Assembly: GCA_947085855.1 (NCBI GenBank)
Contig: CAMTYB010000001.1
Coordinates: 213,788-277,787 of the forward strand
DNA length: 64,000 nt
DNA from: an uncultured Candidatus Saccharibacteria bacterium
Lineage (GTDB): Bacteria > Patescibacteriota > Saccharimonadia > Saccharimonadales > 2-12-FULL-41-12
Direction of reading: 5' to 3'
Positions 19,771-63,867 of the stretch are shown here, piece by piece. The position numbers and the translations under genes were made by a program. Numbering within the stretch: the first letter of the stretch is position 1; every line of letters starts with the position of its first letter. The notes under the pieces were generated by a model that saw only the letters and a program-made list of their open reading frames with translations, was not told the DNA's origin and did no database searches.

Positions 19771-21096
19771 TTACAATAATGTTTCGGGTAAGACCCGTTT
19801 TTGCTCGGTAGTATCGCGGTCACGCACCGTAACCGTACCGTCTTCAAGAGTTTGAAAGTCGATTACCACACAGTACGGGGTACCGATTTCGTCTTGCCGA
19901 CGATAGCGCTTGCCAATGTTGCCATTATCATCCCACATAACATTGCCATGAATCTTCTTTAAATCACGGTAGACCTCTTCGGCCTTGGCTACTAATTCAG
20001 GCTTATTCTTGAGTAAAGGCGACACCGCAAAGCGATATGGTGCCAATTCTGGTTTAAGCTTCAAAACTACTCGAGTCTCGCCATTCACCTCTTCTTCGTG
20101 ATAGGCATTTGTCAGTACGGCCAAGAACATGCGACCAACACCAACAGAACTTTCAATTACATATGGTGTAAAGCGTTCACGAGTTTGATCATCAAAGTAC
20201 TGCAGGTCTTTACCGCTTACGCGAATGTGGTTACTTAAGTCAAAATCTGTCCGATTATGTGTGCCCCACAACTCTTTAAATCCCTGTGGAAATTCAAAAT
20301 AAATATCATGAGCTGCGGCCGCATAATGGGCTCGTTCATCTGTTCCGTGCTCATGCCACTGCAATTTGGCTTCGCCGATTCCAAGTTCTTCCTGCAAGAA
20401 TTTCCAGGCAAACTGACGCCATTGCTCATAGCTCTCGTCTTGAGCCTCAGGACGAATAAAGTACTGCATTTCCATCTGCTCCAGCTCACGAACGCGGAAA
20501 ATAAAGTCGCGCGGTGAAATTTCGTTGCGGAAGGCCTTACCGATTTGGGCAATACCAAAAGGCAACTTGGCACGCATCGTCTCGCGCACATTCTCATAGT
20601 TAGTAAACATTGGCCCAGCCGTTTCTGGTCGCAAATACGCCACACCACTCTCGTCTTCAATAGCACCGACGTACGTTTTCATCATCATATTAAAGGTCCG
20701 GACTTCGCCGAGCGGATTGCCTTCCGGAGATTTTTTATCTTTTAGTAAACGATTGAGTTCGTCGAGGTCATTACTATCAACACCGGCCAGGTGGTCGGCA
20801 CGATAGCGCTTTTTGGTTACCAAATCTTCAACCAAAGGATCATTAAAGCCATCAACGTGTCCACTAGCTACCCAGAGTTTTGGATTTTGAATGATGGCAC
20901 TGTCGATACCAAAAATATTATCGTGGTTACGCACCATCGCCTTCCACCATGTCTGCTTGATGTTATTGATCAGTTCCACGCCAAGCGGACCATAATCCCA
21001 AAAGCCAGCTAAGCCGCCATATATTTCGGAGGCCTGAAACACAAAGCCACGACGCTTGGCTAGCGAGACAATATCTTCTATTTTTACTTCGCTCAT
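19771..21096 (-). CDS. glyQS: Glycine--tRNA ligase (alpha2 type)
   Basis: N-terminus IVSLAKRRGFVFQASEIYGGLAGFWDYGPLG. Class II motifs FRNEISPR and GVGRMFLA. ATG at 21096 is preferred over GTG at 21102. Confidence 0.9.
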   Translation of the reverse strand: MSEVKIEDIVSLAKRRGFVFQASEIYGGLAGFWDYGPLGVELINNIKQTWWKAMVRNHDNIFGIDSAIIQNPKLWVASGHVDGFNDPLVEDLVTKKRYRADHLAGVDSNDLDELNRLLKDKKSPEGNPLGEVRTFNMMMKTYVGAIEDESGVAYLRPETAGPMFTNYENVRETMRAKLPFGIAQIGKAFRNEISPRDFIFRVRELEQMEMQYFIRPEAQDESYEQWRQFAWKFLQEELGIGEAKLQWHEHGTDERAHYAAAAHDIYFEFPQGFKELWGTHNRTDFDLSNHIRVSGKDLQYFDDQTRERFTPYVIESSVGVGRMFLAVLTNAYHEEEVNGETRVVLKLKPELAPYRFAVSPLLKNKPELVAKAEEVYRDLKKIHGNVMWDDNGNIGKRYRRQDEIGTPYCVVIDFQTLEDGTVTVRDRDTTEQKRVLPETLL

Positions 21097-21104
21097 TAGC
21101 ACAG

Positions 21105-21113
21105 ATTATAACA
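21105..21113 (-). promoter_or_regulatory. Extended -10 TGTTATAAT, 8 nt before the glyQS ATG
   Basis: Reverse strand: catcTGTTATAATctgtgctaATG. Confidence 0.5.
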
Positions 21114-21124
21114 GATGAAGCGAT

Positions 21125-21628
21125 TTAACGTGAGTCTGTGTCTTTTTGCTGACGCTCGGCTCGCCTATCAAATACGATAAACGTGCTCGTGCTTGCCAAA
21201 CCAAATATAAATGAGCCCCACCACAAACTTATTTCGCGATCATATTTACGATCATCAATTTGGTCTTGGACGACTTTCTTGACTTCATTGCGTGGATAGC
21301 CGTCTTCTGTAATCACTATATTAAGCGTATCTCTGACATCATGTGGATTCGTCATTTCAAATGTACCCATGACTTGATTTTGCCGAACATCTGAGGCAAT
21401 TTCTCCTTCGAATGATTGGCATTCTTCGGATAATTGCAGGATGAAGCTGCCGTATTTACTGCTATAGCCCTGTCCACTTGGGTCATGCAAGCACGCCTCC
21501 CGATCTCGTAGGTATTCACGAGTATCGGTAGCAAACTCATGTATAGCTGGAACAGCGCCACCGACCGCGGCACCAGCCGCCAGTCCAGCAACAATTCGAC
21601 GACCAGTTCCTAACACACTCATAAGCAA
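21125..21628 (-). CDS. Hypothetical membrane protein, 167 aa
   Basis: Hydrophobic segments at the N-terminus and C-terminus (WWGSFIFGLASTSTFIVF). No family recognised. Confidence 0.45.
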   Translation of the reverse strand: MLMSVLGTGRRIVAGLAAGAAVGGAVPAIHEFATDTREYLRDREACLHDPSGQGYSSKYGSFILQLSEECQSFEGEIASDVRQNQVMGTFEMTNPHDVRDTLNIVITEDGYPRNEVKKVVQDQIDDRKYDREISLWWGSFIFGLASTSTFIVFDRRAERQQKDTDSR

Positions 21629-21648
21629 TTTATATCATAAATATATGA

Positions 21649-22329
21649 CTACTGCAAATATAAGCGCAGCAGTCGATGGGTTAATGTCGTTGTCATTTGC
21701 AGCACCTCGTCAGCCGCTTCAATACGAGGAACTCTGGGATGTGTTTCACACAAGCGCAGCAACTTTATGTGCTCGGCCTTAAAGCCGCCCCGTTCCGCTA
21801 CAGAGAAGGCCTGTTCATCATAATCAAAGTTATATGACGCGTCAGGCTGCAGTGGCTTGCCCGTCGTGTCGGTCTGGAGGTTTGGTATGCTGCCAGAAGT
21901 TGTCAGGAGCTGCATTTCGAACCAGATTTGAATGACTGGCTCAGCGAACGCTGAGTCATCTAGAGCAGCTATCGTCTGTGCCAGAATTGGATAATACTCT
22001 TGTCCTGTTTCATCATGAGTAATCTGATTGATAACTTTTAGGTAGTCGTAGGCAGCCGTTGTCCGGCTCATGTCCTTTACGATTGAGCTGTAGTAGCGCA
22101 GTAGACGACTTGACGTAAGAGTACCAAGACTGGCTTTGCCGCGGATGATACTGACTTCTGTTTCCGAAAATAACTCAATGCCACCGGCTAACTTGCTTTT
22201 AGCTGCCCGCACACCTTTGGCGAGAACACTCGCCTTGCCATGTTCTTTACAGAGCAAGTTAATGATGCGATCACGTTCCCCATAGTCGCTACGCGCCAGA
22301 ATAATTGCCGTGTCTTTGTATTGCTTCAT
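21649..22329 (-). CDS. recO: DNA repair protein RecO
   Basis: OB-fold N-terminus TAIILARSDYGERDRIINLLCKEHGKASVLAKGVR. Typical length. Confidence 0.8.
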   Translation of the reverse strand: MKQYKDTAIILARSDYGERDRIINLLCKEHGKASVLAKGVRAAKSKLAGGIELFSETEVSIIRGKASLGTLTSSRLLRYYSSIVKDMSRTTAAYDYLKVINQITHDETGQEYYPILAQTIAALDDSAFAEPVIQIWFEMQLLTTSGSIPNLQTDTTGKPLQPDASYNFDYDEQAFSVAERGGFKAEHIKLLRLCETHPRVPRIEAADEVLQMTTTLTHRLLRLYLQ

Positions 22330-26069: not shown

Positions 26070-27165
26070 GTGGTTTATCCTTGCGGTTCAGCGCTTTCTG
26101 GTAGTAAAAATAGCCGATCGGCAACTGTACCGCCATACTCAAGACACGATACATGACGATTACTGGAATACTCGTGGAAAGCGGCACGCCAACAGTGGCC
26201 AAAACAGTGGTCATGAGAGCCTCATAGACACCAATGCCGCCCGGCAAGACCGATATAAGGCCAGCAAAGTTAGCAATTGCGTAGGCAATGATCACCGCAC
26301 CAATATTTACGTACTCGCCAAAAGCGATAAATACCGTATACACAGTTGCAATTTCGGTTGCACTCGACAGCATGGCATACACCAACGGCATCTTGAGTTT
26401 GCTGTAATCTTTTTTGAGTATCCGATAATTTTCATGAAACTCCAGGAATAGCTCCCGTACTTTAGCCGTCTTTATGGTCTCAGGATGTTTTGGCCGAATT
26501 AACCGGATCAGCTTGTTGAGCCAGATCGTAATAGTTGTAAAGAACGTATCGATTCGGCGACGATCACCAATAATGTACATCACCAATAGCGTACCGACTA
26601 CCATTAAGGTGCCCAGTACGGTGGCAATAAAGATAACGAGATTACTCGCCTTCCCGGCAACTGCCAAGGCTAAAATTCCGAATAGTAAGATGATTTGGAA
26701 TGAGATAAAGACAGTTGCAAAGCGCATGGTTTGCACCAAGGTTGCCTGGGCTGCCGTGGCGCCCAACTGCTTCATGCGTAAGCTAAAATATGAAAACCCA
26801 GAAACACCTGCACTTGGAAAGACATGGTTTACAAACGTTAATTCCAGCGAAACTTTATAAGCTGAACCATAGCGAATTTTGGTACCCAGGATGTCAAATA
26901 ACCCCTGATAGAGCTTGGCGTAGGTGTGGTAGTTAATGACTTGCCAAAAAATAATGAAGAGCAGTACATAATAATTAACGTTATCGATCTGATGAATAGT
27001 TTCCCAGATTTGATCACGCAGAAAATAAATCAGCAAGACCATCGCCACCAATGTGCCGATGGTTAGAATTAGTCGCCAATTACGACGGCCACTGTCGTGA
27101 CTCTGGTCGTTAGCGCCAACACTCGCACTACTATTCTCCTGTTTGGAAGTCTTTGCCATGTCCAA
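26062..27165 (-). CDS. Flippase-like / LPG-synthase-TM (UPF0104) family membrane protein
   Basis: Polytopic protein of about 8 TM with a charged N-terminus. The overall pattern fits the UPF0104 family. The start may be ATG 27159. Confidence 0.55.
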   Translation of the reverse strand: MDMAKTSKQENSSASVGANDQSHDSGRRNWRLILTIGTLVAMVLLIYFLRDQIWETIHQIDNVNYYVLLFIIFWQVINYHTYAKLYQGLFDILGTKIRYGSAYKVSLELTFVNHVFPSAGVSGFSYFSLRMKQLGATAAQATLVQTMRFATVFISFQIILLFGILALAVAGKASNLVIFIATVLGTLMVVGTLLVMYIIGDRRRIDTFFTTITIWLNKLIRLIRPKHPETIKTAKVRELFLEFHENYRILKKDYSKLKMPLVYAMLSSATEIATVYTVFIAFGEYVNIGAVIIAYAIANFAGLISVLPGGIGVYEALMTTVLATVGVPLSTSIPVIVMYRVLSMAVQLPIGYFYYQKALNRKDKPLV

Positions 27166-27205
27166 CTATTATACGTTATTTATGGCTGTCGATTATACTG
27201 TAGCT

Positions 27206-38004: not shown

Positions 38005-38011
38005 TCTTCCT

Positions 38012-46425: not shown

Positions 46426-46429
46426 TCCC

Positions 46430-49861: not shown

Positions 49862-49867
49862 GGCGCT

Positions 49868-49876
49868 ATGATAGCA
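49868..49876 (-). promoter_or_regulatory. Extended -10 TGCTATCAT, 6 nt before the heliorhodopsin-like ATG
   Basis: Reverse strand: gtgTGCTATCATagcgccATG. Confidence 0.4.
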
Positions 49877-50343: not shown

Positions 50344-50413
50344 AACCCCAGTATAGCAACCAATAATTAAATTCCTATTCCAAGCAACAACCCTGTTATA
50401 AGCATAAATACTA

Positions 50414-50442
50414 TTGACAAAACGTGTGTTTTTTGCTATAAT
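50414..50442 (+). promoter_or_regulatory. Perfect-consensus promoter TTGACA-17-TATAAT
   Basis: Hexamers at 50414-50419 and 50437-50442. The 44-nt A-rich leader contains AAAGGA. Confidence 0.7.
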
Positions 50443-50492: not shown

Positions 50493-51020
50493 ATGCCTCG
50501 ACCATTCCCATTCAATCAAGATGATCGACCAAGCCAGCCAGCTGACCTCAGCGCTGCAATCGACCACTTCTCTGGCGATAAGGAACTAAAAGAAGAAACC
50601 GGCCGGCTGCTTGCCCAAGGCGACGAAGTACTCGCAGCCGATCGACAAGCTCGTGGAGCAGATGCTCCCCGCGCTTCACGCAACATTGGCCGCAAAGCCC
50701 TCGTTGGCGTGGCCGCCGCTGCTGCCATAACATTTCCCACCTCTCGCGACACACTAGTAGATACCACTAAAGCAATCGTGGGCAGCAACTCTGTTGAAGA
50801 AACCGATCAACTCTCTCAGCAAATAAATGAACGAAGCGACGTGCTTCGCCAAGCTATAGCTTCAGGCGAAATTCGCCTACCACAACAAACAGACCAATCA
50901 CCAGAGGAAGACCCCTACCAAGCGGTTCACCAAGCTAACGAGCTTGCTACTGTTGGCGAACAAATGCGACACGGCCAAGACATCCCTGCCGTGCAGGTCG
51001 CCGATCAAACTCGTCAATAA
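50493..51020 (+). CDS. Hypothetical protein with central TM, 175 aa
   Basis: A perfect-consensus promoter lies 51 nt upstream. Central hydrophobic segment ALVGVAAAAAITF. No family recognised. Confidence 0.5.
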   Translation: MPRPFPFNQDDRPSQPADLSAAIDHFSGDKELKEETGRLLAQGDEVLAADRQARGADAPRASRNIGRKALVGVAAAAAITFPTSRDTLVDTTKAIVGSNSVEETDQLSQQINERSDVLRQAIASGEIRLPQQTDQSPEEDPYQAVHQANELATVGEQMRHGQDIPAVQVADQTRQ

Positions 51021-51023: not shown

Positions 51024-52520
51024 TTATAGTTTTACGTCGGGGTAAATTTTGCGGGTGGTTTCGTCGATTTCAGAGCGAAGTTGCGGGAACGGCACTCCTT
51101 CGCGGGCGGTAACACCTTCAAAAATCCAGAAAACACGCTCTGAATAGCCCCAGCCACAGGCTGGCGGCATACCGTATTCGAGCATTTCGACGTAGTCGAT
51201 GTCGAGCATCATGGCTTCGTCATCACCAGCTTCGCGCATCTTTTGTTGTTCGACAAAGCGTTCTAGCTGATCAATTGGATCATTGAGCTCCGAAAAGCCA
51301 TTGCCAAGCTCACTGCCAGCAATGACTGGTTGGAAGCGCTGGACGGTTTCAGGGCGATCTGGATTAGCCTTGGCGAGCGGACTAATAAAGAGCGGTGTGT
51401 TGACTAACCAAACCGGACCAGCCACGTCTTTGCGGATGTTTTTCCAGAGCTTGTCGATACCACGGGCTTTGTTGTCGGCCTTTTCAACTTCAAGTTTGTT
51501 GTCTTTGAGCGCTTTCTTGACCTGTTCGAGAGTACAGTCAAAGACATCAATGTCGTAATGCTTCTTGATAACTTCGGCGTAGTCCCACTCTTCCCAGTCT
51601 TTGCTGAGATCAACGTCAAATTTGCCAAGCTTGAACTGGAGAGTACCAAAAGTAGATTCGATAACATAGCGATACATTTGAGTCATCATTTCCATACCCT
51701 GACGCCAATCGGCGTAGGCCCAGTACCATTCCATGGCAACGTGTTCCGGCAGATGCTCGTCGGAGTAGTTTTCGTTACGGAAGCGCGGACCAACGTCATA
51801 AACGCGCTCAAAACCAGCGCCCAGCAAGCGCTTAAGTGGCAATTCGTGGCTAATACGCAGGTAAAAATCCTGATCAAGCGCATCCATGTGGGTTACGAAT
51901 GGATTGGCATCGGCACCACCAGTAGTGTGCTCAAGGACAGGTATGTTTATCTCTGTAAAACCAGCTTCGTCCAAGAACTGACGGGTAGCCCGCCAAAAGC
52001 GTGAACGGCGGTAAAAGCGCATCCTGACATCATCGTTAACGTTCATATCAACGTAGCGGCGGCGCAGACGCTCTTCTTTGTCGGTCAATTCAGTTGGAGT
52101 TGGCCGCAGAGCCTTAGTCAGCAGACGTAGCGTTTCAACCTGTACTGAGATTTCGCCGGTTTGAGTCTTGATAACCGGGCCGGTTACCTCGACAAAGTCG
52201 CCCGTGTCCAGTAGAGCGATGTCCTTGATAGCGAGTTCGCTGTTGCTGTAATCGGCTTCTTTGTCAGCAGTTTTCCAGAAGGCCTGCAAGTCGCCACCCC
52301 AGTCGCGGACAACTATAAAAGCAATTTTGCCAAATTTGCGGATAGATTTAACCTGGCCAGCGATGGTGACTGGTTTGTTTTCTAGCTCTTCGAAGTTTGT
52401 GCGAATGTAGCCGTTGCTGTGTGTGCGATGTGACTTGGCTGGGTACGGGTTAACGCCCAGCGCTTTCAGTTCTTCGAGCTTGCGCAGACGCTCATTACGA
52501 TAATCTTGTAGGGTTGCCAT
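51024..52520 (-). CDS. lysS: Lysine--tRNA ligase (class II)
   Basis: N-terminal OB anticodon-binding domain. Class II motifs FRNE(NYSDEH), GELGNGFSELNDP, GWGYS. ATG 52520 is preferred over TTG 52526. Confidence 0.92.
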   Translation of the reverse strand: MATLQDYRNERLRKLEELKALGVNPYPAKSHRTHSNGYIRTNFEELENKPVTIAGQVKSIRKFGKIAFIVVRDWGGDLQAFWKTADKEADYSNSELAIKDIALLDTGDFVEVTGPVIKTQTGEISVQVETLRLLTKALRPTPTELTDKEERLRRRYVDMNVNDDVRMRFYRRSRFWRATRQFLDEAGFTEINIPVLEHTTGGADANPFVTHMDALDQDFYLRISHELPLKRLLGAGFERVYDVGPRFRNENYSDEHLPEHVAMEWYWAYADWRQGMEMMTQMYRYVIESTFGTLQFKLGKFDVDLSKDWEEWDYAEVIKKHYDIDVFDCTLEQVKKALKDNKLEVEKADNKARGIDKLWKNIRKDVAGPVWLVNTPLFISPLAKANPDRPETVQRFQPVIAGSELGNGFSELNDPIDQLERFVEQQKMREAGDDEAMMLDIDYVEMLEYGMPPACGWGYSERVFWIFEGVTAREGVPFPQLRSEIDETTRKIYPDVKL

Positions 52521-52528
52521 TGCCAAGC

Positions 52529-52537
52529 ATTATAACA
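52529..52537 (-). promoter_or_regulatory. Extended -10 TGTTATAAT, 8 nt before the lysS ATG
   Basis: Reverse strand: ctcTGTTATAATgcttggcaATG. Confidence 0.5.
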
Positions 52538-52566: not shown

Positions 52567-53028
52567 TTAGGCTATTTTTGCAACTTTGTAGGTAGCAGTT
52601 TCAGCTGGGGTGGCGATCTCAACTTCTTCACCGAGTTGCTTGCCCATCAAGGCTTGGCCGATTGGTGATTCATCAGAAATTTTACCGTTGAGTGGATCAG
52701 CTTCGACGGTGCCAACAAGGGTGAATTGCTTGCTCTTACCGTTGCCTTTGAGCTCAACCTGGGAGCCAAGTTGGACTTTGTCGGTTTTGCCTTTTGGCTT
52801 GGCAATAACTTCGACGTTAGCCAAGATGTATTCGATTTCGGAAATACGCGACTCAAGCGTCACCTGCTCGTCTTTGGCAGCATGATATTCGGCATTCTCA
52901 CTTAAATCACCTTGTTCACGAGCGGTCTTAATGGCATCGGCGACGCCGGCTCGCTTAGAAACAAGGCCGTCTAGCTCGGCTTTTAGCTCATCGATGCCTT
53001 CTTGGGTTAAGTGGTATTGCTTTTTCAT
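52567..53028 (-). CDS. greA: Transcription elongation factor GreA
   Basis: LTQEGIDELKAELD...REQGDLSENAEYHAAKDEQ and the C-terminal FKBP-like domain. Confidence 0.9.
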   Translation of the reverse strand: MKKQYHLTQEGIDELKAELDGLVSKRAGVADAIKTAREQGDLSENAEYHAAKDEQVTLESRISEIEYILANVEVIAKPKGKTDKVQLGSQVELKGNGKSKQFTLVGTVEADPLNGKISDESPIGQALMGKQLGEEVEIATPAETATYKVAKIA

Positions 53029-53211
53029 GTCATGCTTCCTTTGCTTCGTTATGTTCGCGTAAACCCTCTCTCGCCCACGTTTCGTTTACATTCCTGTATT
53101 TCTGATGGTTTGATTCAGTTTACCTTTGATTTATAAAAAACTCAAACGCACCCGGTTTTGGCGAGTCAAATATATGATTTATCGACTCATTCTTACCATT
53201 TATGGTGTATT

Positions 53212-54462
53212 TTATGCTTGTAGATGCGTAATGAGGCTGTTTTGTGGCACTAATTCAGCCGTCTCGCTGGTGCGAGCTTTGACCTCTACAGATGATTGTT
53301 CGAGCGTCTTAGAACTGATTACGACCCGATACGGCATTCCGAGTAAATCAGCGTCAGCAAACTTAGTTCCAGGCCGAACTGCGCGATCATCATACAACAC
53401 CGAGATACCGGCTGCCTGTAAGACTTCGTACAGTTTTTCTGCTTCGCTTATGACTTTTTCGTCCTCGCCGACCGTCACTAACTGCACCAACGCTGGGGCA
53501 ACCGCTTTTGGCCAGGCCAAGCCCTTATCGTCGGCAAAATGCTCCGCCAACACGCCCACCAAGCGACTCACGCCAATGCCATAACAGCCCATAATAATCT
53601 GTTGTTCTGCCCCGTCTTCGTCGGTGTAGGTCAAACCAAGTGCATCCGTATACTTGGTGCCGAGTGAAAAAATATTACCGACCTCTACCGCCCGCTTTTC
53701 AACCAAGTCGTCCTTCTTCAGGCCAATTTGCTGGAGCACTTCGTCTGTAAAAACTTCTTTGTTAATGGCAATTTTCTTGGCTTCATCAACATAAATTGTA
53801 TCTTCGCCAACATGGCTCAGTGTTTGGAATTCGTCACTGAATTGACTAAAAATGCCACCGCTGGCAAAAGTGCGATAGGTGATGTCGCCAATGCCAAGTC
53901 GTTCGTAGACTCGATGGTAGGCCTCGGCCAATTCTTCATACTGCTGCTTATGCTCATCTTCAGTGCGTGAAAAGGTATATAGGTCTTTCATGAGGAATTC
54001 GCGACCGCGCATGATGCCACTTTTAGCACGCAACTCGTTACGGAATTTACTTTGAATCTGATACACCTTAAGTGGCAGATCCTTGTACGAATTCACGTAC
54101 GGCTTAAGTGAATCAACCACCGGTTCTTCGTGCGTCAGGCCAACGCCGAGTTCGGTACCGTTGGCTAATTTGGTTTTGAACCAGTTATCAACTTTGGCAT
54201 CATCCCAACGATCAGTTAGCTCCCAGATATCCTTTGGCTGCAGCACGGACATCCAGACTTCTTGACCACCAACTTTGTCCATCTCGTCACGCACGATATC
54301 GGCCACATTATTAAGAACTTTTAATCCAAGCGGCAGATAGGCATACACACCAGCCATTTCTTTGTGAACATAGCCGCCCTGAATAAGTAGCTGCGCATTG
54401 CGCGCCGTTTCGTCAGCCGGAACTGATTTGCTGGTTTTTGTGAATAATTTTGAAAGTCTCAT
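53212..54462 (-). CDS. proS: Proline--tRNA ligase, bacterial-type N-terminus but lacking the INS editing insertion
   Basis: MRLSKLF...PADETARNAQLLIQGGYV, motif 2 FRNELRAKSGIMRGREFLMKD, motif 3 GCYGIGVSRL. Only ~130 aa separate motifs 2 and 3. Confidence 0.9.
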   Translation of the reverse strand: MRLSKLFTKTSKSVPADETARNAQLLIQGGYVHKEMAGVYAYLPLGLKVLNNVADIVRDEMDKVGGQEVWMSVLQPKDIWELTDRWDDAKVDNWFKTKLANGTELGVGLTHEEPVVDSLKPYVNSYKDLPLKVYQIQSKFRNELRAKSGIMRGREFLMKDLYTFSRTEDEHKQQYEELAEAYHRVYERLGIGDITYRTFASGGIFSQFSDEFQTLSHVGEDTIYVDEAKKIAINKEVFTDEVLQQIGLKKDDLVEKRAVEVGNIFSLGTKYTDALGLTYTDEDGAEQQIIMGCYGIGVSRLVGVLAEHFADDKGLAWPKAVAPALVQLVTVGEDEKVISEAEKLYEVLQAAGISVLYDDRAVRPGTKFADADLLGMPYRVVISSKTLEQSSVEVKARTSETAELVPQNSLITHLQA

Positions 54463-54470
54463 CGGGCTCC

Positions 54471-54476
54471 ATTGTA
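54471..54476 (-). promoter_or_regulatory. -10 TACAAT, 8 nt before the proS ATG
   Basis: Reverse strand: aaggTACAATggagcccgATG. No clear -35. Confidence 0.35.
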
Positions 54477-54555: not shown

Positions 54556-56376
54556 TCATACTCGAAAAAATTCTTCATCAGCAGTAGGCGTTTGGATATG
54601 GTCGGCTGACGACTCATCATGACGTCGAAGCCGAATGCCTCGCTTACCAAACCCAACCGGCTGTGCGTAGCTATGATTAAATGATGGCGCGTTACGGTGA
54701 CTAACGTTGCCACGGCCTTTGTTCGTAACACCCATACTTGTGTATGCACCACCATCACAAATTTGTAGCATCGAACACATGGCTGCAAAACCGTTTATTT
54801 CCTCATCGGATACCCGAGACCTTATATATTCTCTCAGTGTGTCTTTGGCTAGCTTATACATGGCTGCCTTGGCTGATTGACCAGCCCCACGAATATTGAT
54901 ATCAAAAGCCAAATCAGCACCTTCGCCAATTATTGCCAGTATCATTTTTCTATCGCGAACCGGCAAACCTACCTCTTTCAGAAAACCGTTGGCGTATATT
55001 TGATTAAAGTCCTTTTGATTGTGAATTTCACCTTTTATAGCTGCCGCTGGTTTGCCGATATCGTGCGCTAAAATAGCCAGCCTCATGGGGGCAAGCATTT
55101 GCACCGGCAAGTTATCTGCAAAGTTTTCATCAAAGTTTTGGAGTACTGTTTCTGTATGCTCAGCTAAGCTAAACTTCTCCCAATTGCCAGTATCTTCTTT
55201 AAAAATGTGCCCAAAACTAGTAAGTTGACTTGCTAGCTCTACAATTTTTTCTGGCTTCACGTGAGGGTCATCCTGGATTGCCCTAAGAAGCGGCAAACGC
55301 GTATCCGTACCTTCCTGCTCACGTGTTTTTTCTGTAATTTCATCGAGTCGTGCAGCAAATTGACCAACCTGTCGCCACGTCGACTGGCGCTGAGCTTTTG
55401 CTTGTTCTTCAGTTGCCACTTTTTCAAGATCAAAGAGTGATATTGCAATCATCTTTCGATTGATAGTTGCAGAATAAATAGGCTGCTGAACACCGACAAT
55501 ACCTGCTTCTCGAAAGTATCGTTGCACGTATTCCATATTAAGCGGTAGCTCGACCTGCCCTTCATTGACAAGATTAATAACGTCAGTATGAATGTCTCTT
55601 TGCGAACCTAGTAAACGGCCGGCCGCATATGACGGTGCAATCTGCATTACCTGGCGTGCATTGTAGGCACTAGCAAGCTGGAGCGCAACGCTTTCGTCGA
55701 TGCCAGCTTCTTCTGCATACAATGACACCTCTTCTTGCTTGATTCTCGTGGGCAGACGTCGATTGATCACTTCTTTAAAAGGCTTAAAGGCATGTCGATC
55801 GTCGAAACCGAGTGGAGATCCTTCAGATACGCCTATGGCTAACTTATTTAGAGCACCTTTATATTTTTCTAAAGTTACCTCGTCCAATGTTTGAACATCA
55901 AAATTGAGATCAATGACAACTGCATCCGGATTGACCGACACAATATCATGGATTTCCCCTTGGTATTTACGTGCGATAGACTGCCACAAATCGTCCTTTT
56001 CGACTTCAGACATCGGCCATTTAGACGCGTTTGCTTCTCTATCGCGCATTGCTTCAATATATTCTGGATATATAAATTCTCTGCCGCGACTCCTAGCAAA
56101 TTCTAGGGCGTTATCACGCGAGCCTGTGTACAGTGTTGGGCGCGTATTAACGTTGAAATTTCCATTATCGTTGCGGCCATTCGCAAATACCGGGTTTACG
56201 GTCCATGGCTCATTAGCATGATTCTCGCCAACGCGACCATGAAATGTCTCCAGTTCAGACAATGGAGCCAGAAGACCTATCTCTTTAAGTGTCTCAATCG
56301 CCCTGAATCTTTCGGCATCTTCGAGACTTCTAGAATGTTCGGCGCGGGTCTGTAGCTGTTCTGACATAGTATGCAT
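54556..56376 (-). CDS. Large hypothetical protein (606 aa) with C-terminal HD-domain
   Basis: HD signature LAEHTETV...RLAILAHDIGKP...D. The N-terminal ~400 aa are unrecognised. No signal peptide or TM. Confidence 0.55.
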   Translation of the reverse strand: MHTMSEQLQTRAEHSRSLEDAERFRAIETLKEIGLLAPLSELETFHGRVGENHANEPWTVNPVFANGRNDNGNFNVNTRPTLYTGSRDNALEFARSRGREFIYPEYIEAMRDREANASKWPMSEVEKDDLWQSIARKYQGEIHDIVSVNPDAVVIDLNFDVQTLDEVTLEKYKGALNKLAIGVSEGSPLGFDDRHAFKPFKEVINRRLPTRIKQEEVSLYAEEAGIDESVALQLASAYNARQVMQIAPSYAAGRLLGSQRDIHTDVINLVNEGQVELPLNMEYVQRYFREAGIVGVQQPIYSATINRKMIAISLFDLEKVATEEQAKAQRQSTWRQVGQFAARLDEITEKTREQEGTDTRLPLLRAIQDDPHVKPEKIVELASQLTSFGHIFKEDTGNWEKFSLAEHTETVLQNFDENFADNLPVQMLAPMRLAILAHDIGKPAAAIKGEIHNQKDFNQIYANGFLKEVGLPVRDRKMILAIIGEGADLAFDINIRGAGQSAKAAMYKLAKDTLREYIRSRVSDEEINGFAAMCSMLQICDGGAYTSMGVTNKGRGNVSHRNAPSFNHSYAQPVGFGKRGIRLRRHDESSADHIQTPTADEEFFRV

Positions 56377-57268: not shown

Positions 57269-58349
57269 CTACGGTGATGAGGACAAACAGAGCCATCAAG
57301 GCTACAAACCCTGTGCCGTGAATTGCCTCTTCTTTCTCTTTTGTTAATGGTTTTTTGAGCGCTCTAAACAGCAGCAGGACAAATAGTCGGCCACCATCGA
57401 GAGCAGGAATTGGCAGCACATTCATGATTGCGAGTGACAACGACAAAATAGCGATTACAAACAAGATGAAGTTAGCGCCAATCTTGCTACCACGCTCGAG
57501 GATTACGGCGATGCCCACGGGCCCGGACACCTGCTCGCTGGCTGTTTTGGTGTCGCCCTTGACTAGACTACTGATTGCCGTGCCAAGCCCTTTAAACGTC
57601 AGCTGCGTCAACTGACCGGTTAGACCAACTGCCACCACTGGTGCTGACCACGTACTGCGCTGCAATTGGATACCGTCTTGCATCGGTGCTACGCCGATGT
57701 AGCCATTACCTTTGTTTTCTTGGTTAACTTGCATCTGTGCGGTATAGGTTTGACCATCGTGCATATAGACAATTGGTATGGTCTGACCAGCATATCGCTT
57801 AGCGATTTGGCCAACTTGATCGGTTTTAGTTATTGGTGTGTTGGCAATTGAGACGATCTCATCGCCTTCCTTGAGTCCGGCTTTGCCGGCCGGTTCGTTG
57901 CTTTCAACGTCACCAGCGACAATGTTAGCTTCACGCGTCACCTTCGTGTCGCTCGCTACGGTAAACTGGTTATCTATAAGTTTTGGCATGCCTACAAGCG
58001 CCAAAATCGTGAACATGGCGAGCGCCACAATCAAGTTCATGACCACCCCGGCCAACATGACTTTTACTTTGACGTTTAGCGGCGCAGCACCAAAGCTACC
58101 GGGTCGCCTATCGGCATCGTTTTCGCCTTTTAAGCGCACAAAACCGCCGAGCGGTAGTAGATTTATGGTGAAAAGGAATTTGCTCTTTTTGGTACGGACT
58201 TTCTTACCCCACACCTTTGGCGGAAAACCAATACCAAATTCTTCAACCTCTACGCCACCACGACGAGCGGCCACAAAATGACCCCACTCGTGTACAACCA
58301 CGAGTCCAATAAACAGAATTACTGCCACAATTAAAAGAAATACTGCCAT
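57246..58349 (-). CDS. rseP: RIP site-2 metalloprotease RseP (M50) with PDZ
   Basis: HEWGHFVAARRGG, a PDZ segment (AGKAGLKEGDEIVSI), and NLLPIPALDGG. Confidence 0.85.
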   Translation of the reverse strand: MAVFLLIVAVILFIGLVVVHEWGHFVAARRGGVEVEEFGIGFPPKVWGKKVRTKKSKFLFTINLLPLGGFVRLKGENDADRRPGSFGAAPLNVKVKVMLAGVVMNLIVALAMFTILALVGMPKLIDNQFTVASDTKVTREANIVAGDVESNEPAGKAGLKEGDEIVSIANTPITKTDQVGQIAKRYAGQTIPIVYMHDGQTYTAQMQVNQENKGNGYIGVAPMQDGIQLQRSTWSAPVVAVGLTGQLTQLTFKGLGTAISSLVKGDTKTASEQVSGPVGIAVILERGSKIGANFILFVIAILSLSLAIMNVLPIPALDGGRLFVLLLFRALKKPLTKEKEEAIHGTGFVALMALFVLITVVDVRRFF

Positions 58350-58358
58350 CTACCCCTC

Positions 58359-58367
58359 ATTTTACCA
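58359..58367 (-). promoter_or_regulatory. Extended -10 TGGTAAAAT, 9 nt before the rseP ATG
   Basis: Reverse strand: ctaTGGTAAAATgaggggtagATG. Confidence 0.45.
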
Positions 58368-58389: not shown

Positions 58390-58953
58390 TTAAACGGTCA
58401 TGATTTCGGTCTCTTTGGCCTTGGCCTTGGAGTCCAGAGCAGCTCGTTGCTTGCTCATAGCATCATCAATTTGCGTAACGCAGCGTTTGTGCTCGTCTTC
58501 GCTCATAGCTTTGTCTTTTTTGGCTTGATCCAGCTCTTTCAAAGCATCGTGACGGACACCGCGCATAGCAATGTTAGCGTCTTCGACTTTTTCGCCCAAC
58601 TGTTTAACAATCTGTCGGCGGCGCTCCTCGGTCAGTGGCGGGATTGGAATGCGAATCAGCCGACCATCGTCGCTCGGGTTCAAGCCAAGGCTTTGATTGT
58701 CGCGAATTGCGCTTGCAATGGTTTGTACCGTATTTGGATCAAACGGTGAAATTTGCAGCAACTGCGCCTCTGGTGCGCTGATGGTTGCCACTTGGATCAA
58801 TGGCATTTGTTGACCATAGGCCTCAACCGTCACGCCATCGAGCATGCTCGGGTGTGCGCGACCAGTTCGGAGTTTTTTAACTTCGTCATCGAAGCGCGAC
58901 ACAGCAGCTTCAAACTTAGTTTGGGCAGTTGAAATAACGTCTTGTGGATTCAT
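58390..58953 (-). CDS. frr: Ribosome recycling factor
   Basis: RTGRAHPSMLDGVTVEAYG...PLTEERRRQIVKQ. Confidence 0.95.
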   Translation of the reverse strand: MNPQDVISTAQTKFEAAVSRFDDEVKKLRTGRAHPSMLDGVTVEAYGQQMPLIQVATISAPEAQLLQISPFDPNTVQTIASAIRDNQSLGLNPSDDGRLIRIPIPPLTEERRRQIVKQLGEKVEDANIAMRGVRHDALKELDQAKKDKAMSEDEHKRCVTQIDDAMSKQRAALDSKAKAKETEIMTV

Positions 58954-58961
58954 ATAGATTT

Positions 58962-58967
58962 AGTATA
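58962..58967 (-). promoter_or_regulatory. -10 TATACT, 8 nt before the frr ATG
   Basis: Reverse strand: gcgcTATACTaaatctatATG. No clear -35. Confidence 0.35.
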
Positions 58968-58980: not shown

Positions 58981-59247
58981 TTAGCATGGATAGTGCAAGT
59001 TTTCACGGATGCGCTGGAGTGCTTTGTGGATAAATCCTAAGCCACTACCTCTCGCTTGGTCTCGACGTTGCGCCTGGGCTTCCTCGGTCAACATAACGAC
59101 GGTAGCAATGTGTCCTTCACCCACTTCTAGCTGGCCGGCAACTACAACTTCATCTTCGCCCCATCCCATTACGTCCATGGTGCGACGATCTTTATCTGTA
59201 AGCTCCGGTTGCGGCGCTGTCTCGCCTGAAAATTTATCCTCACTCAT
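58981..59247 (-). CDS. Hypothetical small acidic protein (~88 aa)
   Basis: ORF with its own TAGACA-17-TATAAT promoter. ATG 59247 lies 8 nt after the -10. No family recognised. Confidence 0.4.
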   Translation of the reverse strand: MSEDKFSGETAPQPELTDKDRRTMDVMGWGEDEVVVAGQLEVGEGHIATVVMLTEEAQAQRRDQARGSGLGFIHKALQRIRENLHYPC

Positions 59248-59255
59248 AAACATAC

Positions 59256-59284
59256 ATTATAGCACAAATTCTAGAGTTTGTCTA
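59256..59284 (-). promoter_or_regulatory. Promoter TAGACA-17-(TGc)TATAAT, 8 nt before ATG 59247
   Basis: Reverse-strand hexamers at 59284-59279 and 59261-59256. Confidence 0.55.
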
Positions 59285-59298: not shown

Positions 59299-60645
59299 CT
59301 ACTGCTCAGACTGGACGTATTTTTTAGTTTCGTTGTCAACAAATCTTTTGATACGTTTTTCGGCACGACCAGAAATTCTTCCTTCTGCTGCTGCAGTAGT
59401 TGCTTGTACATACATGCCGTCAAGCAAAGACCGCACAAACTCAGGATGAGTCTGTACTTTTGGAATATCTGGATTAGCAACAGCTATGTTTAATTTAGTT
59501 GCCATGCTTTTTATTTCATTGCTGAGTTGTTTTCTATCTGATCGCCGAACAACGCGCCACGCCAATTCTTCTGATTTATCTGGCACGGTTCCGTGTACTG
59601 ACATTCTTATAAGTAGCTCTTTCTTGAGCGCCTCAGACGGCGACAAAGAACCTGGATACGCGCCAGCAGTCAGTATTTCACCAACTAAAAGGCGATCCCG
59701 CCCAAGGTCTGGATCGCCTACCTTCAAATTGACACGATAAAGAATTTGACGGGCTACTTCCGGCAATGCTTTATCGAAAGCTTCTCTAGATTTTATTGAG
59801 AGATCGTGCTGCAAAGTCTCATCTAAGGAAATGATGCCCTGTCGCTGAAGAACTAAACCCAATTCAGGAACTCTTTCAAACTCGCCAGATTTCAGGAAAT
59901 GCTCTGTTATAGCCTGTGGGCCAACCAAACATTTTACGCCCAGGCTATCGACTATGCGGGGCCCACCTGGATCAAACAAGCGCGCAGGATACTCAGACAT
60001 ATCTACGCCACGACCCGTAACTGAGTCGTTATCCCATTTTGGTTTTACCGGCCGAGCAAAGCGCAGGAAGTCTCCTGTCTTGCTGTCGGCAAACCCCACT
60101 TCGTCGGCGTCTATGGCAGACAGATCTGCTTCCATTCTTAGCTTATCTAACTTTGCGCCTGCGACCACGAAGGATCTACTATTGCCACTTACCAATACGC
60201 TCCTCTGCCTATCCTCGCCATTTTCCATACTCTGGATCACCTGAACACCTTGGCTTGCTGCCCAGTCAGGATTACTACCATTCAGCACCTGGTTGATAAC
60301 CATCCAGGCAATTGCCTTGCTGCCAAGTAGCCAAATCGTGCCGCCATCAGCAGCGATATATTCTCGCTTGTATGGAATGTCGAGGCGATGGGCAGCTTCT
60401 TGGCGAGCCAGTTTTTTGTTCCCCAAAAGATCTGCTTCCAGCAAAGTCTCCTTGTCGAAAGTGTCAATAATTTCTGGATTGAATTCGTCGTCGCCAGCAA
60501 TTATTGCCTCGAGGTGTTTCCGTTCACTCACCCCCATATCAGTAAGTTCCGCTTGCTTGCTTGCAATTCCGTTCTCGCCTCCATACCGACGAGTTAGAAA
60601 CTCAAAATCCACACCCATTTCTTCAAATACTGTGGTAGTGCTCAT
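59299..60645 (-). CDS. Large hypothetical protein (~448 aa)
   Basis: Long ORF between tsf and frr. AAGGAG lies 11 nt upstream of ATG 60645 (the ORF track extends to 60711). No motif, signal peptide or TM recognised. Confidence 0.5.
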   Translation of the reverse strand: MSTTTVFEEMGVDFEFLTRRYGGENGIASKQAELTDMGVSERKHLEAIIAGDDEFNPEIIDTFDKETLLEADLLGNKKLARQEAAHRLDIPYKREYIAADGGTIWLLGSKAIAWMVINQVLNGSNPDWAASQGVQVIQSMENGEDRQRSVLVSGNSRSFVVAGAKLDKLRMEADLSAIDADEVGFADSKTGDFLRFARPVKPKWDNDSVTGRGVDMSEYPARLFDPGGPRIVDSLGVKCLVGPQAITEHFLKSGEFERVPELGLVLQRQGIISLDETLQHDLSIKSREAFDKALPEVARQILYRVNLKVGDPDLGRDRLLVGEILTAGAYPGSLSPSEALKKELLIRMSVHGTVPDKSEELAWRVVRRSDRKQLSNEIKSMATKLNIAVANPDIPKVQTHPEFVRSLLDGMYVQATTAAAEGRISGRAEKRIKRFVDNETKKYVQSEQ

Positions 60646-60755
60646 TTTCCAGAAAACTCCTTGTTTTTGAATAGTACCATATACCATAAACCTTGTAAAA
60701 AACCATGACAAGTAAGCCCATTGGACGGATTGTTGGGCTAAATTTAAGAAGCAGT

Positions 60756-61358
60756 CTATTCGATGACTTCGCCGATAGCCAGGCGGCTAAAGCGGCGGAC
60801 CACGATGTTTTCACCAAGCTTGGCAATGCCTTCTTTGATGAAGAGATCGACTGTTTGGTCGGGGTTTTTGACGAATGGCTGGTCGAGTAGGCAGCGTTCG
60901 GCAAAGTATTTTTTGACCATGCCACTGACAATTTGGTCGAGCATGTTGTCTGGCTTGCCTTCGGCTTTGGCTTTTTCGGTAAATTCGGCGGTTACTTTTT
61001 CGGTTTCTTCGGCTGGAATATCGTCAGCACTAACATAGAGCGGACTAGCAGCTGCAATGTGCATAGCAATGTCTTTTACAAGGTCGGTGAATTGTTCGTT
61101 ACGAGCCACAAAGTCAGTTTCGCAGTTCACCTCTAATACGACGCCAATGCGGCTGTCATGATTGTATGTACTAACGATGCCGGCACGGGCTTCGCGTTCA
61201 CCACGCTTTTCGGCCTTAGTTAGGCCTTTCTTGCGCATAGCTTCGAGAGCTTTATCAAAATCGCCGTTGGCTTCGACGAGGGCTTTTTTGGCATCAGTAA
61301 TGCCAACGCCCGTTAGGCCGCGGAGGCGCTTAATTTCATCAATTGAGATATCTGCCAT
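60756..61358 (-). CDS. tsf: Elongation factor Ts (short form)
   Basis: UBA-like N-terminus IKRLRGLTGVGITDAKKALVEANGDFDKALEAMRKKG. Confidence 0.9.
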   Translation of the reverse strand: MADISIDEIKRLRGLTGVGITDAKKALVEANGDFDKALEAMRKKGLTKAEKRGEREARAGIVSTYNHDSRIGVVLEVNCETDFVARNEQFTDLVKDIAMHIAAASPLYVSADDIPAEETEKVTAEFTEKAKAEGKPDNMLDQIVSGMVKKYFAERCLLDQPFVKNPDQTVDLFIKEGIAKLGENIVVRRFSRLAIGEVIE

Positions 61359-61385
61359 ATCTATTCCCTTCCTAAATTCTTAAAA

Positions 61386-62129
61386 TTATTCGGCTTTATC
61401 GGTTTTGTCGGCTTTAGCTTCTGGTTGTTTTTGTTGAGCTTTGCCAACATTGATAGCTTCTACAAAGTAATCGATGATCAATTTAACAGATTTGATTGCA
61501 TCATCGTTAGCTGGTATGACGTAGTCTACCAAGCTTGGATCGGCGTTGGTGTCGACAATAGCGATAACTGGGATACCAAGCTTACGAGCTTCACGCACTG
61601 CGTTGATTTCGGCCACAACATCCACCACGATCATTGCACCGGGGCGATTAGCCATGTGCTTGATACCGCCGTACATGTGGTTCATGTCATCGATTTCTTC
61701 TTGGAAACGCTGGACTTCGAGCTTGTTGTACTTAGCTTCGAGCGCACCTGAATCCATGCGTTGTTCGATGTCTTTTAGATGCTTAATGCGACCATTCATG
61801 GTTGCAACGTTCGTTAGCATACCGCCAACCCAACGTTCTACAACAAATGGCATGCCGGTAGATTCACCAGCTTCACGGACAGCATCCTTAGCTTGGCGTT
61901 TAGTACCAACCAGTAGAACTTGGCGGCTAGAGGCAACCGTTTTGACAACAAAAGCGAGCGCTTCATCAAGGCCTTCAACGGTTTTGGTCAAGTCTATGAT
62001 GTGACTGCCGTCTCGTTTGCTGTGAATGTATTGAGCCATTTTTGGGTGCCAGCGACTGGTCTTGTGACCAAAGTGAGCACCGGCTTCTAATAGTTTTTTA
62101 ATATCAACGTCTACAGTAGCTTGCGCCAT
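61386..62129 (-). CDS. rpsB: 30S ribosomal protein S2
   Basis: LLEAGAHFGHKTSRWHPKM, VLLVGTKRQA, DTNADPSLVDYVIPANDDA. Confidence 0.95.
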   Translation of the reverse strand: MAQATVDVDIKKLLEAGAHFGHKTSRWHPKMAQYIHSKRDGSHIIDLTKTVEGLDEALAFVVKTVASSRQVLLVGTKRQAKDAVREAGESTGMPFVVERWVGGMLTNVATMNGRIKHLKDIEQRMDSGALEAKYNKLEVQRFQEEIDDMNHMYGGIKHMANRPGAMIVVDVVAEINAVREARKLGIPVIAIVDTNADPSLVDYVIPANDDAIKSVKLIIDYFVEAINVGKAQQKQPEAKADKTDKAE

Positions 62130-62232
62130 GTGTCGTCTTCCTTTCTCTTCGCTATCGAGGACCGGTCAGAGTTTCTACACGAAACATAAGCCAGAGGAAC
62201 ACTTCTCGATGCTGCTTAATGATAGTTACCCT

Positions 62233-62269: not shown

Positions 62270-62298
62270 TTGCCCATTTACTCCTTTCACGATATAAT
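62270..62298 (+). promoter_or_regulatory. rpmE promoter TTGCCC-17-TATAAT, 8 nt before the ATG
   Basis: Hexamers at 62270-62275 and 62293-62298. ATG at 62307. Confidence 0.6.
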
Positions 62299-62306
62299 AC
62301 TGCGAT

Positions 62307-62702
62307 ATGAAACAAGGTATTCACCCGAAAAACTATCGTCCTGTAGTGTTCCAAGATCTTTCGAATGGCACTATGTTTTTGACGCAGTCAACTGCTACTA
62401 CCGATGAAACCATCAAGCACGAAGATGGCAACGAGTATCCATTGGTAAAAATCCACATCAGTAGCGCCTCACATCCCTTCTTTACCGGCCAAGAAAAGCT
62501 GGTTGACATCGAAGGTCGCGTTGACAAGTTTAAAGCTCGATCAGAAGCTGCCGCCAAGAAGCGCGAAGAAGCTGCTCAGCGACTTGCCGCCAAGAAGCAA
62601 AAGACATCTGCCAAGCCAGCAAAAGCTGCCGACTCAGAAGCCAAGGCCGACTCTAAGACCGAAGCCAAAGCTGAACCAGTCAAAGAAGCTCAAGAAGCCT
62701 AG
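62307..62702 (+). CDS. rpmE: 50S ribosomal protein L31 (type B, no CxxC) with Lys/Ala-rich C-terminal extension
   Basis: [10 protein letters not shown]...[20 protein letters not shown], followed by ~55 aa of K/A/E-rich tail. Confidence 0.85.
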
Positions 62703-62723
62703 TCTACCGGACAAACCAACACT

Positions 62724-62752
62724 ACGAGCCGAGTTATCTTGGCTCGTTTTTA
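62724..62752 (+). terminator. Intrinsic terminator after rpmE
   Basis: ACGAGCC, loop gagttatctt, GGCTCGT, followed by TTTTT. Confidence 0.75.
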
Positions 62753-62794
62753 ATGGCATTTCTTGTATGCCGATTTTTCGGAAAATAACAGTGG

Positions 62795-62803
62795 TGATAT
62801 ACT
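62795..62803 (+). promoter_or_regulatory. Extended -10 TGATATACT, 8 nt before the prfA ATG
   Basis: ggTGATATACTagtttgatATG. Confidence 0.45.
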
Positions 62804-62811
62804 AGTTTGAT

Positions 62812-63867
62812 ATGAATCCTAAAGAACAAGCCCTGCGCGAGGAGTTGACTGCGCTTCAAAAACAACTTGAAGACCCAGCTATTTACAGCGATAAACGTTA
62901 TCCAAAACTTGCTCGACGTCAAAATGAATTAGAAACTATCGTTGCTCTTTTTGACGAAAAGCAAAAGTTGCAGACCGAACAACAAGCCGCTGAGCAGCTT
63001 GGTAAAGACGCCGATGCCGACATGGCCGCTATGGCGCAGGAGGAACTGACTGCTATTGCCGGGCAGCTCGAATCTACGACTGCTAAGCTCGAGGAACTTT
63101 TGACGCCAAAAGACCCGAACGATGAGCGTAATGTCGTCATGGAAATCCGAGCGGCTGCTGGTGGCGATGAAGCAAGCTTATTTGCTGGCGAACTCTACCG
63201 TATGTATAGCCACTACGCCGAAGATAATGGTTTCAAAACTGTCCACGTTAGCGATAGTCCCAGCGAAGCTGGTGGCTTTAAAGAAGTTGTGTTCGAAATT
63301 AATGGTGACTTTGCTTACCGGCAACTGCGTCTAGAAGCCGGCGTTCATCGCGTTCAGCGGGTACCAGCTACTGAGTCTCAGGGTCGCGTCCATACCAGCA
63401 CCGTGACCGTAGCAGTCATGCCCGAAGCCGAAGAAGCTGACATTGAAATCGCGCCCAACGATTTGCGCGTAGACGTCTTCCGTGCTGGTGGCCACGGCGG
63501 CCAAAGCGTCAACACCACCGACTCAGCCGTCCGCATCACCCACATCCCGACTGGCACTGTTGTGACCAACCAAGATGAGAAGTCTCAGATCAAAAACAAA
63601 GAAAAAGCCATGAGCATCCTCCGCTCTCGCTTACTCCAATCAAAAATTGAAGCTGAGCAAGAAAAATTATCGCAAGCTCGTAAGAAACTAATCGGTTCTG
63701 GTGATCGTTCTGAGAAAATTCGCACCTACAACTTCCCGCAAGATCGCATCACCGACCACCGCATCGGCTACTCACGCAGTAACATCCCAGCCGCCCTAAA
63801 CGGCGACATTAACGACATTATAGAAAAACTCCATGACTACGAGCGCACGCTCCTCAGCGAAGAATAA
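62812..63867 (+). CDS. prfA: Peptide chain release factor 1
   Basis: PxT tripeptide (VPATESQGR) and GGQ ([19 protein letters not shown]). Confidence 0.95.

Follow-up and report, generated by a model that had tools for sequence, protein, structure and literature searches.

How does a gene recruit ribosomes when its start codon lies only a few nucleotides behind what looks like its promoter? The question is raised by a 64-kb stretch of a Candidatus Saccharibacteria (TM7) genome (GC ~48%; this whole stretch is called the window below), in which the −10 hexamer of a putative promoter, often in the extended TGn form, ends 6–9 nt before the ATG of many housekeeping genes. The original prediction listed twelve such genes (glyQS, ftsE, serS, a repeat-protein gene, a heliorhodopsin-like gene, lysS, proS, rseP, frr, a small open reading frame (ORF), rpmE, and prfA), considered them to look leaderless, and proposed that this mode of initiation coexists with ordinary Shine–Dalgarno (SD)-led initiation at other genes. 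The leaderless look of these genes is supported by the position of the signal, its promoter features, its depletion within operons, its restriction to ATG, and its conservation, and all computational tests that we ran agree with the coexistence of two modes. About a quarter of the genes in the window have a −10 box 6–9 nt before the ATG, and their mRNAs should start at or next to it. Our preferred reading, to which we assign a probability of ~0.8, is that each of these genes probably has its own promoter that starts transcription at or near the ATG and yields a leaderless mRNA, beside a set of SD-led genes, and that this arrangement is a largely gene-specific trait of the Saccharibacteria lineage. 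Both the transcription start position and the mode of ribosome recruitment are what we infer from the patterns described below.

Position and character of the −10 signal

The start of each long ORF in the window was taken as its first in-frame ATG, chosen blind to any motif (60 genes). We defined a strict hexamer as TANNNT with at least five of six matches to TATAAT, and the geometry as such a hexamer ending 6–9 nt before the ATG. Fifteen of the 60 genes have the geometry, and each other spacer between 0 and 39 nt is found in at most one gene. The background over all 1954 ATGs of the window is 1.2% (binomial P ~ 6e-16). Shuffling the 50 nt upstream of each start led to an expectation of 1.26 genes (mononucleotide shuffle) or 1.18 genes (dinucleotide shuffle), and random rotation of the same 50 nt, which keeps the hexamers but moves them, to a mean of 1.84; the highest count in up to 2000 shuffle or rotation trials was 7. 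The original prediction had named a lack of enrichment over shuffled sequence as an outcome that would speak against it; with 15 genes against 1.2–1.8 expected, chance is rejected as an explanation. We relied on the all-ATG, shuffle, rotation, and far-spacer controls because a control based on in-frame internal ATGs is flawed: it gives too low a background for hexamers that introduce a stop codon in frame (e.g., TATAAT at spacer 8). Extended −10 sites (TGn plus strict hexamer) occur only 25 times on both strands of the 64 kb; 11 of them have an ATG at 6–9 nt, and all 11 of these ATGs open long ORFs.

The distance from hexamer to start codon, which the original prediction proposed to survey genome-wide, was tabulated in 80 loci (L001–L080) of at most 21 kb around proS from related genomes, with 1285 ORFs of at least 100 aa. 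The same 6–9 nt peak is present: spacers of 6, 7, 8, and 9 nt are found in 67, 43, 61, and 52 genes, respectively, over a baseline of ~8, followed by a tail of 25, 30, and 16 genes at 10, 11, and 12 nt. In the loci labelled Saccharibacteria, 20% of 925 genes have the geometry, vs. 3% at control spacers of 20–23 nt; in ten loci labelled as other groups of the Candidate Phyla Radiation (CPR), the value is ~10%, based on few genes. The best relatives of the ProS of the window, at up to 71% identity, are in metagenome-assembled genomes (MAGs) labelled Candidatus Saccharibacteria or Saccharimonadales. The window genes are also present in public assemblies, with the small-ORF protein on an NCBI/Logan contig.

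The signal has the character of a promoter. TATAAT occurs 72 times at spacers 6–9 vs. 6.5 times further upstream, and the other 19 hexamers of its composition are mostly enriched just one- to twofold, except for shifted overlaps of TATAAT; plain AT-richness is therefore rejected. The commonest hexamers at this distance are TATAAT, AAGGAG, TATACT, AAAGGA, and TACAAT, i.e., the Pribnow box and the SD sequence share one distance from the start. The TGn extension, which was not used in selection, accompanies 42% of the 248 aligned sites (spacers 6/7/8/9: 71/50/69/58) vs. 8% of all strict hexamers, with G at position −14 in 65%. The −35 position at 17 bp, likewise unselected, retains a weak TTG (T/T/G = 0.52/0.38/0.38 in the 248 sites). 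Leaderless-type genes have a pyrimidine immediately before the ATG in 76% of cases and a G in just 8%, which fits initiation at A.

Operon context, start codons, and orthologues

The geometry depends on the arrangement of neighbouring genes. Among co-directional genes it is found in 2% of those that overlap the upstream gene, 8% of those with gaps of 0–14 nt, 35% at 15–39 nt, and 27% at 40–99 nt, and in divergently arranged genes it reaches 20%. SD-like cores are found in 20–33% of genes in every gap class. A ribosome-binding element would be expected at operon-internal genes too, and a promoter would not, so the depletion there favours a promoter. Similarly, a non-SD ribosome-binding motif on leadered mRNAs (GeneMarkS-2 group B, Bacteroidetes type) would be expected before first and internal operon genes alike, and the motif found here is near-absent from overlapping and tightly spaced co-directional genes. 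In the 15–39-nt co-directional gaps of L001–L080, the −35 region reaches back into the 3′ end of the preceding gene, and a terminator would not fit.

To fix orthologue starts, N-termini were aligned and the start codon closest to aligned residue 1 was taken, with the motif ignored. All 96 leaderless-type starts so fixed are ATG, and 17 of the 181 SD-led starts are GTG or TTG (Fisher's exact test: P = 9e-4). Among N-terminal candidate codons, the geometry accompanies 14.6% of ATG, 1.9% of GTG, and 1.4% of TTG. An AGGAG-type SD precedes each of the four proS orthologues that start with GTG, and an SD sequence likewise lies upstream of the window's pyrG (GTG) and several TTG-starting genes. We reject mis-called starts as an explanation because the N-termini are conserved from residue 1: ProS begins with MRLSQLFT in 78 orthologues, the alignments to the Seryl_tRNA_N and L31 profiles start at residue 1, and homologues of the small protein start with MS(K/R)D, which corresponds to ATG 59247 and not to ATG 59253. 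At glyQS, lysS, the heliorhodopsin gene, and other genes, the in-frame GTG or TTG codons that precede the ATG fall within the spacer or the box, and would be absent from a transcript made from that promoter. List-style ORF calling over-extends several genes to such a codon inside the promoter, and start calling in Saccharibacteria MAGs should model a −10 Pribnow box besides the SD.

The geometry is conserved gene by gene in relatives at 53–84% protein identity. For serS, 22 strict and 3 loose leaderless-type starts and a single SD-led one were counted among 26 orthologues (22/3/1 of 26); in the same order, the tallies are 15/13/2 of 34 for lysS, 11/12/4 of 33 for rpmE, and 5/1/2 of 9 for ftsE. 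On the SD-led side they are 0/4/43 of 57 for greA, 0/0/34 of 40 for rpsB, 1/1/34 of 44 for tsf, and 0/1/12 of 16 for secA, with GTG or TTG starts in five of the SD-led secA orthologues. The mode of initiation thus appears to be largely gene-specific in the Saccharibacteria lineage. In four closer relatives (L082–L085), in which the homologue of the small-ORF protein is 77–84% identical to that of the window, the flanks diverge but prfA, rpmE, the small ORF, frr, rseP, proS, and lysS keep the −10 box at a conserved distance from the ATG, and the −35 TAGACA and extended −10 of the small ORF stand out as conserved blocks.

Three genes switch mode between orthologues: proS (17/21/20 of 78), frr (12/3/14 of 32), and rseP (8/0/9 of 27). 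The proS orthologues of L001, L006, L008, and L049 keep the TGnTACAAT box and follow it with a leader of 20–26 nt that contains an AGGAG SD, and three of them (L001, L008, and L049) start with GTG. The retained box with an interposed SD leader suggests that genes may pass between the leaderless and SD-led states by small insertions or deletions.

Alternative explanations and relation to known systems

On our preferred reading, each leaderless-type gene would be served by its own sigma-70-type promoter, mostly of the extended −10 form (TGnTAnnnT) with a weak −35 element, from which RNA polymerase would start at the A of the ATG or no more than ~3 nt before it. The resulting mRNA would lack a usable 5′ leader or SD sequence and would therefore be translated by the leaderless route, with the ribosome binding the 5′-terminal AUG directly; such direct recognition is established for leaderless translation. 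The second gene set (rpsB, tsf, greA, secA, pyrG, and others) would use ordinary leaders with AGGAG or AAGGA SD sequences.

Several observations weigh against this reading. We found no mapped 5′ ends for the source organism or its relatives, and a preprint on the TM7x transcriptome gives no transcription starts, untranslated regions, promoters, or operons. RNA-seq-assembled contigs, sought by exact-protein look-ups for transcript 5′ ends, were all multi-gene and DNA-like, and yielded the relatives L081–L085. A generic −35/−10 promoter scan was not enriched over shuffles (26 sites vs. 22.3 expected), so the support is carried by the −10/TGn motif and the geometry and not by complete promoters; for promoters such as these, of the extended −10 type with a weak −35, the scan is uninformative. 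The commonest spacer in the window is 8 nt, and the lineage range of 6–9 nt with a tail to 12 is somewhat longer than the typical 7 nt reported for the distance from −10 to transcription start (PMC12641261), so some transcripts may carry leaders of 1–5 nt; spacers of 8–9 nt by themselves leave room for leaders of 1–3 nt. Upstream gaps are often just 27–56 nt, co-directional, and without a terminator, so read-through transcription is probable too. In three genes of the window (ftsE, proS, and rseP), the spacer itself contains an SD-like core.

The long spacers are the natural argument for real promoters that start transcription a few nucleotides before the ATG, so that the mRNAs would have leaders of 1–5 nt and be SD-independent but not strictly 5′-AUG-terminal. 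Spacers of 8–9 nt dominate the window, the lineage has its tail at 10–12 nt, some rpmE orthologues have the box 12–13 nt from the ATG and no SD, and the distance from −10 to transcription start is typically 7 nt. Yet among the 248 sites, spacers of 6 and 7 nt occur about as often as those of 8 and 9, the pyrimidine-rich and G-poor base before the ATG fits initiation at A, and the exclusive use of ATG fits recognition of a 5′-terminal AUG; we therefore regard such short leaders as an unlikely general account of these genes. Much less probable still is that the TA-rich hexamer acts in translation, as an A/U-rich unstructured or S1-binding element on leadered or polycistronic mRNAs, like non-SD ribosome-binding sites. 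Nakagawa et al. (PMC5397173) cautioned against simply ascribing an AT bias at −20 to −10 to promoters of leaderless mRNAs, and the many genes that closely follow a co-directional neighbour with no terminator would suit such an element, but it would not explain why hexamers of the same composition are unenriched, why TGn and a −35 TTG accompany the hexamer, why the few extended −10 sites lie almost exclusively upstream of genes, or why the signal is near-absent from overlapping operon-internal genes, where the need for a ribosome-binding site is greatest.

The original prediction had itself cautioned that the purine-rich spacers of ftsE, proS, and rseP could serve read-through transcripts as a very closely spaced SD. 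The caution is apt for these three genes, with SD-like cores 3–5 nt before the ATG (spacers aggaaga, ggagcccg, and gaggggtag, respectively), and such use by read-through transcripts is possible there, but it does not extend to the group: an SD core is present in 12 of the 248 leaderless-type spacers (4.8%), equal to its frequency at that position in non-leaderless genes. Moreover, proS of L082 keeps GGTACAAT with 8 nt but has the spacer gaacaccg, and rseP of L084 keeps TGGTAAAAT with 9 nt but has gaagttcac, neither with an SD core; since the core is lost while box and spacing stay, the close SD is not the conserved feature. A general version of this idea, in which expression comes mainly from read-through transcripts with the purine spacer as a close SD and the −10 boxes are minor internal promoters, could also appeal to the frequent SD-led orthologues of frr, rseP, and proS, and in view of the rarity and loss of the core we consider it the least probable account of all, slightly behind a translational element.

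Separate promoters with starts at or near the ATG agree with what has been described in other lineages. Zheng et al. (2011; PMC3160421) reported a TA-like signal ~10 bp before the start codon, covering >20% of genes in Actinobacteria and Deinococcus-Thermus, with a TG peak in some genomes, and GeneMarkS-2 (Lomsadze et al. 2018; PMC6028130) assigns to its group C the genomes in which a leaderless Pribnow box 6–8 nt from the start is mixed with an SD at the same distance. The hexamer peak found here coincides with the latter position and so agrees with a leaderless reading. The TA-led genes of Actinobacteria and Deinococcus-Thermus resemble ours further in having the box 6–8 nt (~10 bp) before first-in-operon starts, in coexisting with SD-led genes at the same distance, in making up ~20–40% of genes, and in shifts of mode between diverging orthologues. 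They differ in that high-GC genomes have a bare TANNNT, in contrast to the full TATAAT, TATACT, or TACAAT with strong TGn found here, where the units also sit in 15–40-nt gaps of a genome of <1 Mb and use ATG starts only. Extended −10 leaderless signals of low-GC genomes such as Lactococcus (PMC3160421) are similar in having TG one base before the hexamer and little −35, but the GC content is medium (~48%) here and 42% of the sites combine TG with the leaderless geometry. Canonical SD initiation, with AAGGAG or AAAGGA 6–9 nt before the start and tolerance of GTG and TTG, is present in the same window (rpsB, tsf, greA, secA, pyrG, and others), unlike which the leaderless-type genes have no SD and no leader able to hold one. 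Saccharibacteria (CPR/Patescibacteria) are not named in either PMC3160421 or PMC6028130, and a full-text literature search found no paper that links leaderless mRNAs to Saccharibacteria, TM7x, Patescibacteria, or CPR, the mentions it gave being unrelated or confined to reference lists. The architecture is thus the known TA-led (GeneMarkS-2 group C) one, in a lineage for which we found no report in the literature.

We put at even odds a broader proposition, that Saccharibacteria, and perhaps CPR/Patescibacteria, are a further major lineage in which about a fifth to a quarter of genes are leaderless. In it, the mode would be a fixed property of each gene across deep divergences (leaderless for aminoacyl-tRNA synthetases, L31, RF1, and RRF; SD-led for S2, EF-Ts, GreA, and SecA), and switches would arise when small insertions separate the start codon from a −10 box that is retained; the arrangement would also act as a compaction device that fits promoter and start into 15–40-nt gaps of very small genomes, and might be linked to reduced ribosomes. 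With four aminoacyl-tRNA synthetase genes and several translation factors predicted to lack a leader, there would be no room for a T-box, attenuator, or other leader control, which fits the regulatory simplicity of these epibionts. The compact conserved expression signals (TGnTATAAT, 6–8 nt, ATG) may be useful as genetic tools for newly tractable Saccharibacteria, natural pairs of leaderless and SD-led orthologues are available for experiments, and a deep-branching, genome-reduced lineage would be added to the debate on ancestral leaderless initiation.

Leaderless-type and SD-led genes of the window

All twelve combinations of −10 motif and spacer in the original prediction are exact in the sequence with respect to hexamer, TGn, and spacer length, and Pfam agrees with the gene names given there (glycyl-, seryl-, lysyl-, and prolyl-tRNA synthetases, FtsE-like ABC ATPase, heliorhodopsin, M50/PDZ protease, RRF, L31, and class-1 release factor). 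Eight of the twelve have the TGn extension. On the minus strand, glyQS (21094–21113) has TGTTATAAT and an 8-nt spacer before ATG 21096, and encodes a class II aminoacyl-tRNA synthetase core with an HGTP anticodon-binding domain (Pfam); the ftsE-like ABC ATPase gene (38002–38020; Pfam) has TGCTATAAT and its 7-nt spacer before ATG 38004; and serS (44674–44689) has TATACT and 7 nt before ATG 44676. The lysS unit (52518–52537, minus strand; Pfam) again has TGTTATAAT with 8 nt before ATG 52520 and is conserved in L082, proS (54460–54476, minus) has (G)GTACAAT with its 8-nt spacer before ATG 54462, and rseP (58347–58367, minus), for an M50 plus PDZ protease (Pfam), has TGGTAAAAT with 9 nt before ATG 58349. 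On the plus strand, the repeat-protein unit (44742–44782) consists of a −35 TTGACT, 17 bp, TGCTAATAT, and a 9-nt spacer before ATG 44780. Its hexamer, TAATAT, is the weakest of the twelve (4/6), but TGn and, at a distance of 17 bp, a 5/6 −35 accompany it; another ATG (44771) directly abuts the hexamer.

The small-ORF unit (59245–59284, minus) has a −35 TAGACA, 17 bp, TGCTATAAT, and an 8-nt spacer before ATG 59247, and its promoter matches the −35/−10 consensus at 11 of 12 positions. The small protein (88 aa; 58981–59247, minus), which lies between the ORF at 59299–60711 and frr, has no Pfam family; its promoter is the strongest in this region, and its homologues (77–84% identity, 88–89 aa) were found in three other assemblies only, always just upstream of frr. 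The frr unit itself (58951–58967, minus) has TATACT and 8 nt before ATG 58953, within the 27-nt gap that follows the small ORF. The rpmE unit (62270–62309, plus; Pfam L31) has a −35 TTGCCC, 17 bp, TATAAT, and 8 nt before ATG 62307. A terminator-like hairpin with a T run (62724–62752, plus; 10-pair stem with 6 G-C pairs, then TTTTT) separates it from the promoter of prfA, so that rpmE is a complete minimal unit: promoter 62270–62298, ATG 62307, stop 62702, hairpin 62724–62747, and then the prfA promoter at 62795–62803. The prfA unit (62795–62814, plus; PCRF and RF-1 domains, Pfam) has TGATATACT with 8 nt before ATG 62812.

Four to six additional units were found beyond the twelve, those given below with a coordinate range being on the minus strand: a glycosyl hydrolase family 1 (GH1) gene (17995–18014; TGCTATAGT, 8 nt, ATG 17997), a DUF1801 gene (18914–18931; TGATATAGT, 6 nt, ATG 18916), a gene for a membrane protein of the LPG_synthase_TM family (27157–27173; TATAAT, 8 nt, ATG 27159), and a gene for a 145-aa protein with no Pfam match (50341–50358; TGCTATACT, 6 nt, ATG 50343). 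A PD-(D/E)XK nuclease ORF (46423–46440; TGTTACAAT, 6 nt, ATG 46425) is a possible further one with an uncertain start, as the ORF reaches up to a GTG at 46545, and a response-regulator gene (ATG 29901) is a weaker case. Divergent from the unit at 50343 is a perfect promoter (50414–50442, plus; TTGACA, 17 bp, TGcTATAAT; 12/12), the best match in the 20 kb scanned, which lies ~50 nt upstream of a 175-aa ORF (50493–51020) with no Pfam match.

The original prediction had described SD leaders for the gene at 4405, greA, tsf, rpsB, secA, and pyrG, and AGGAG- or AAGGA-type sequences are indeed present upstream of all of them. The rpsB start (62127–62150, minus) has AAAGGAAG ~7 nt before ATG 62129, and an extended −10, TGTTAAAAT, at 62238, ~100 nt upstream. 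The tsf start (61356–61378, minus) has AGGAAGGGA before ATG 61358, and greA (53026–53047, minus) has AAAGGAAG before ATG 53028. At secA (43082–43144, minus), TATAAT at 43144–43139 is followed by a leader of ~48 nt with the SD AGGGAGAG at 43102–43095 and ATG 43084. Scans of the 64-kb window with Rfam (gathering score) and for tRNAs found no family and no tRNA gene, including no T-box before the four aminoacyl-tRNA synthetase genes and no known ribosomal-protein leader before rpsB, despite its probable leader of ~100 nt from the extended −10 at 62238; no known leader RNA therefore accounts for these upstream regions.

A third type of start, with a short leader and no SD, is seen at a 606-aa ORF without a Pfam match (54556–56376, minus), where the promoter TGCTATAAT at 56404 is followed by a 22-nt A-rich leader, gacactaaagttataaaaacaa. 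Two of the leaderless-type genes encode extended proteins. The L31 gene (62307–62702, plus) encodes 131 aa, of which the Pfam L31 match covers residues 1–78, leaving a C-terminal extension of ~50 aa; the L082 orthologue has 119 aa. The heliorhodopsin unit (49859–49876, minus; PF18761) has TGCTATCAT and a 6-nt spacer before ATG 49861, a start also picked by the gene caller of a public assembly (303 aa), and in the encoded protein (48950–49861, minus) the Pfam match begins at residue 69 of 303, which leaves an N-terminal extension of ~65 aa before the rhodopsin fold.

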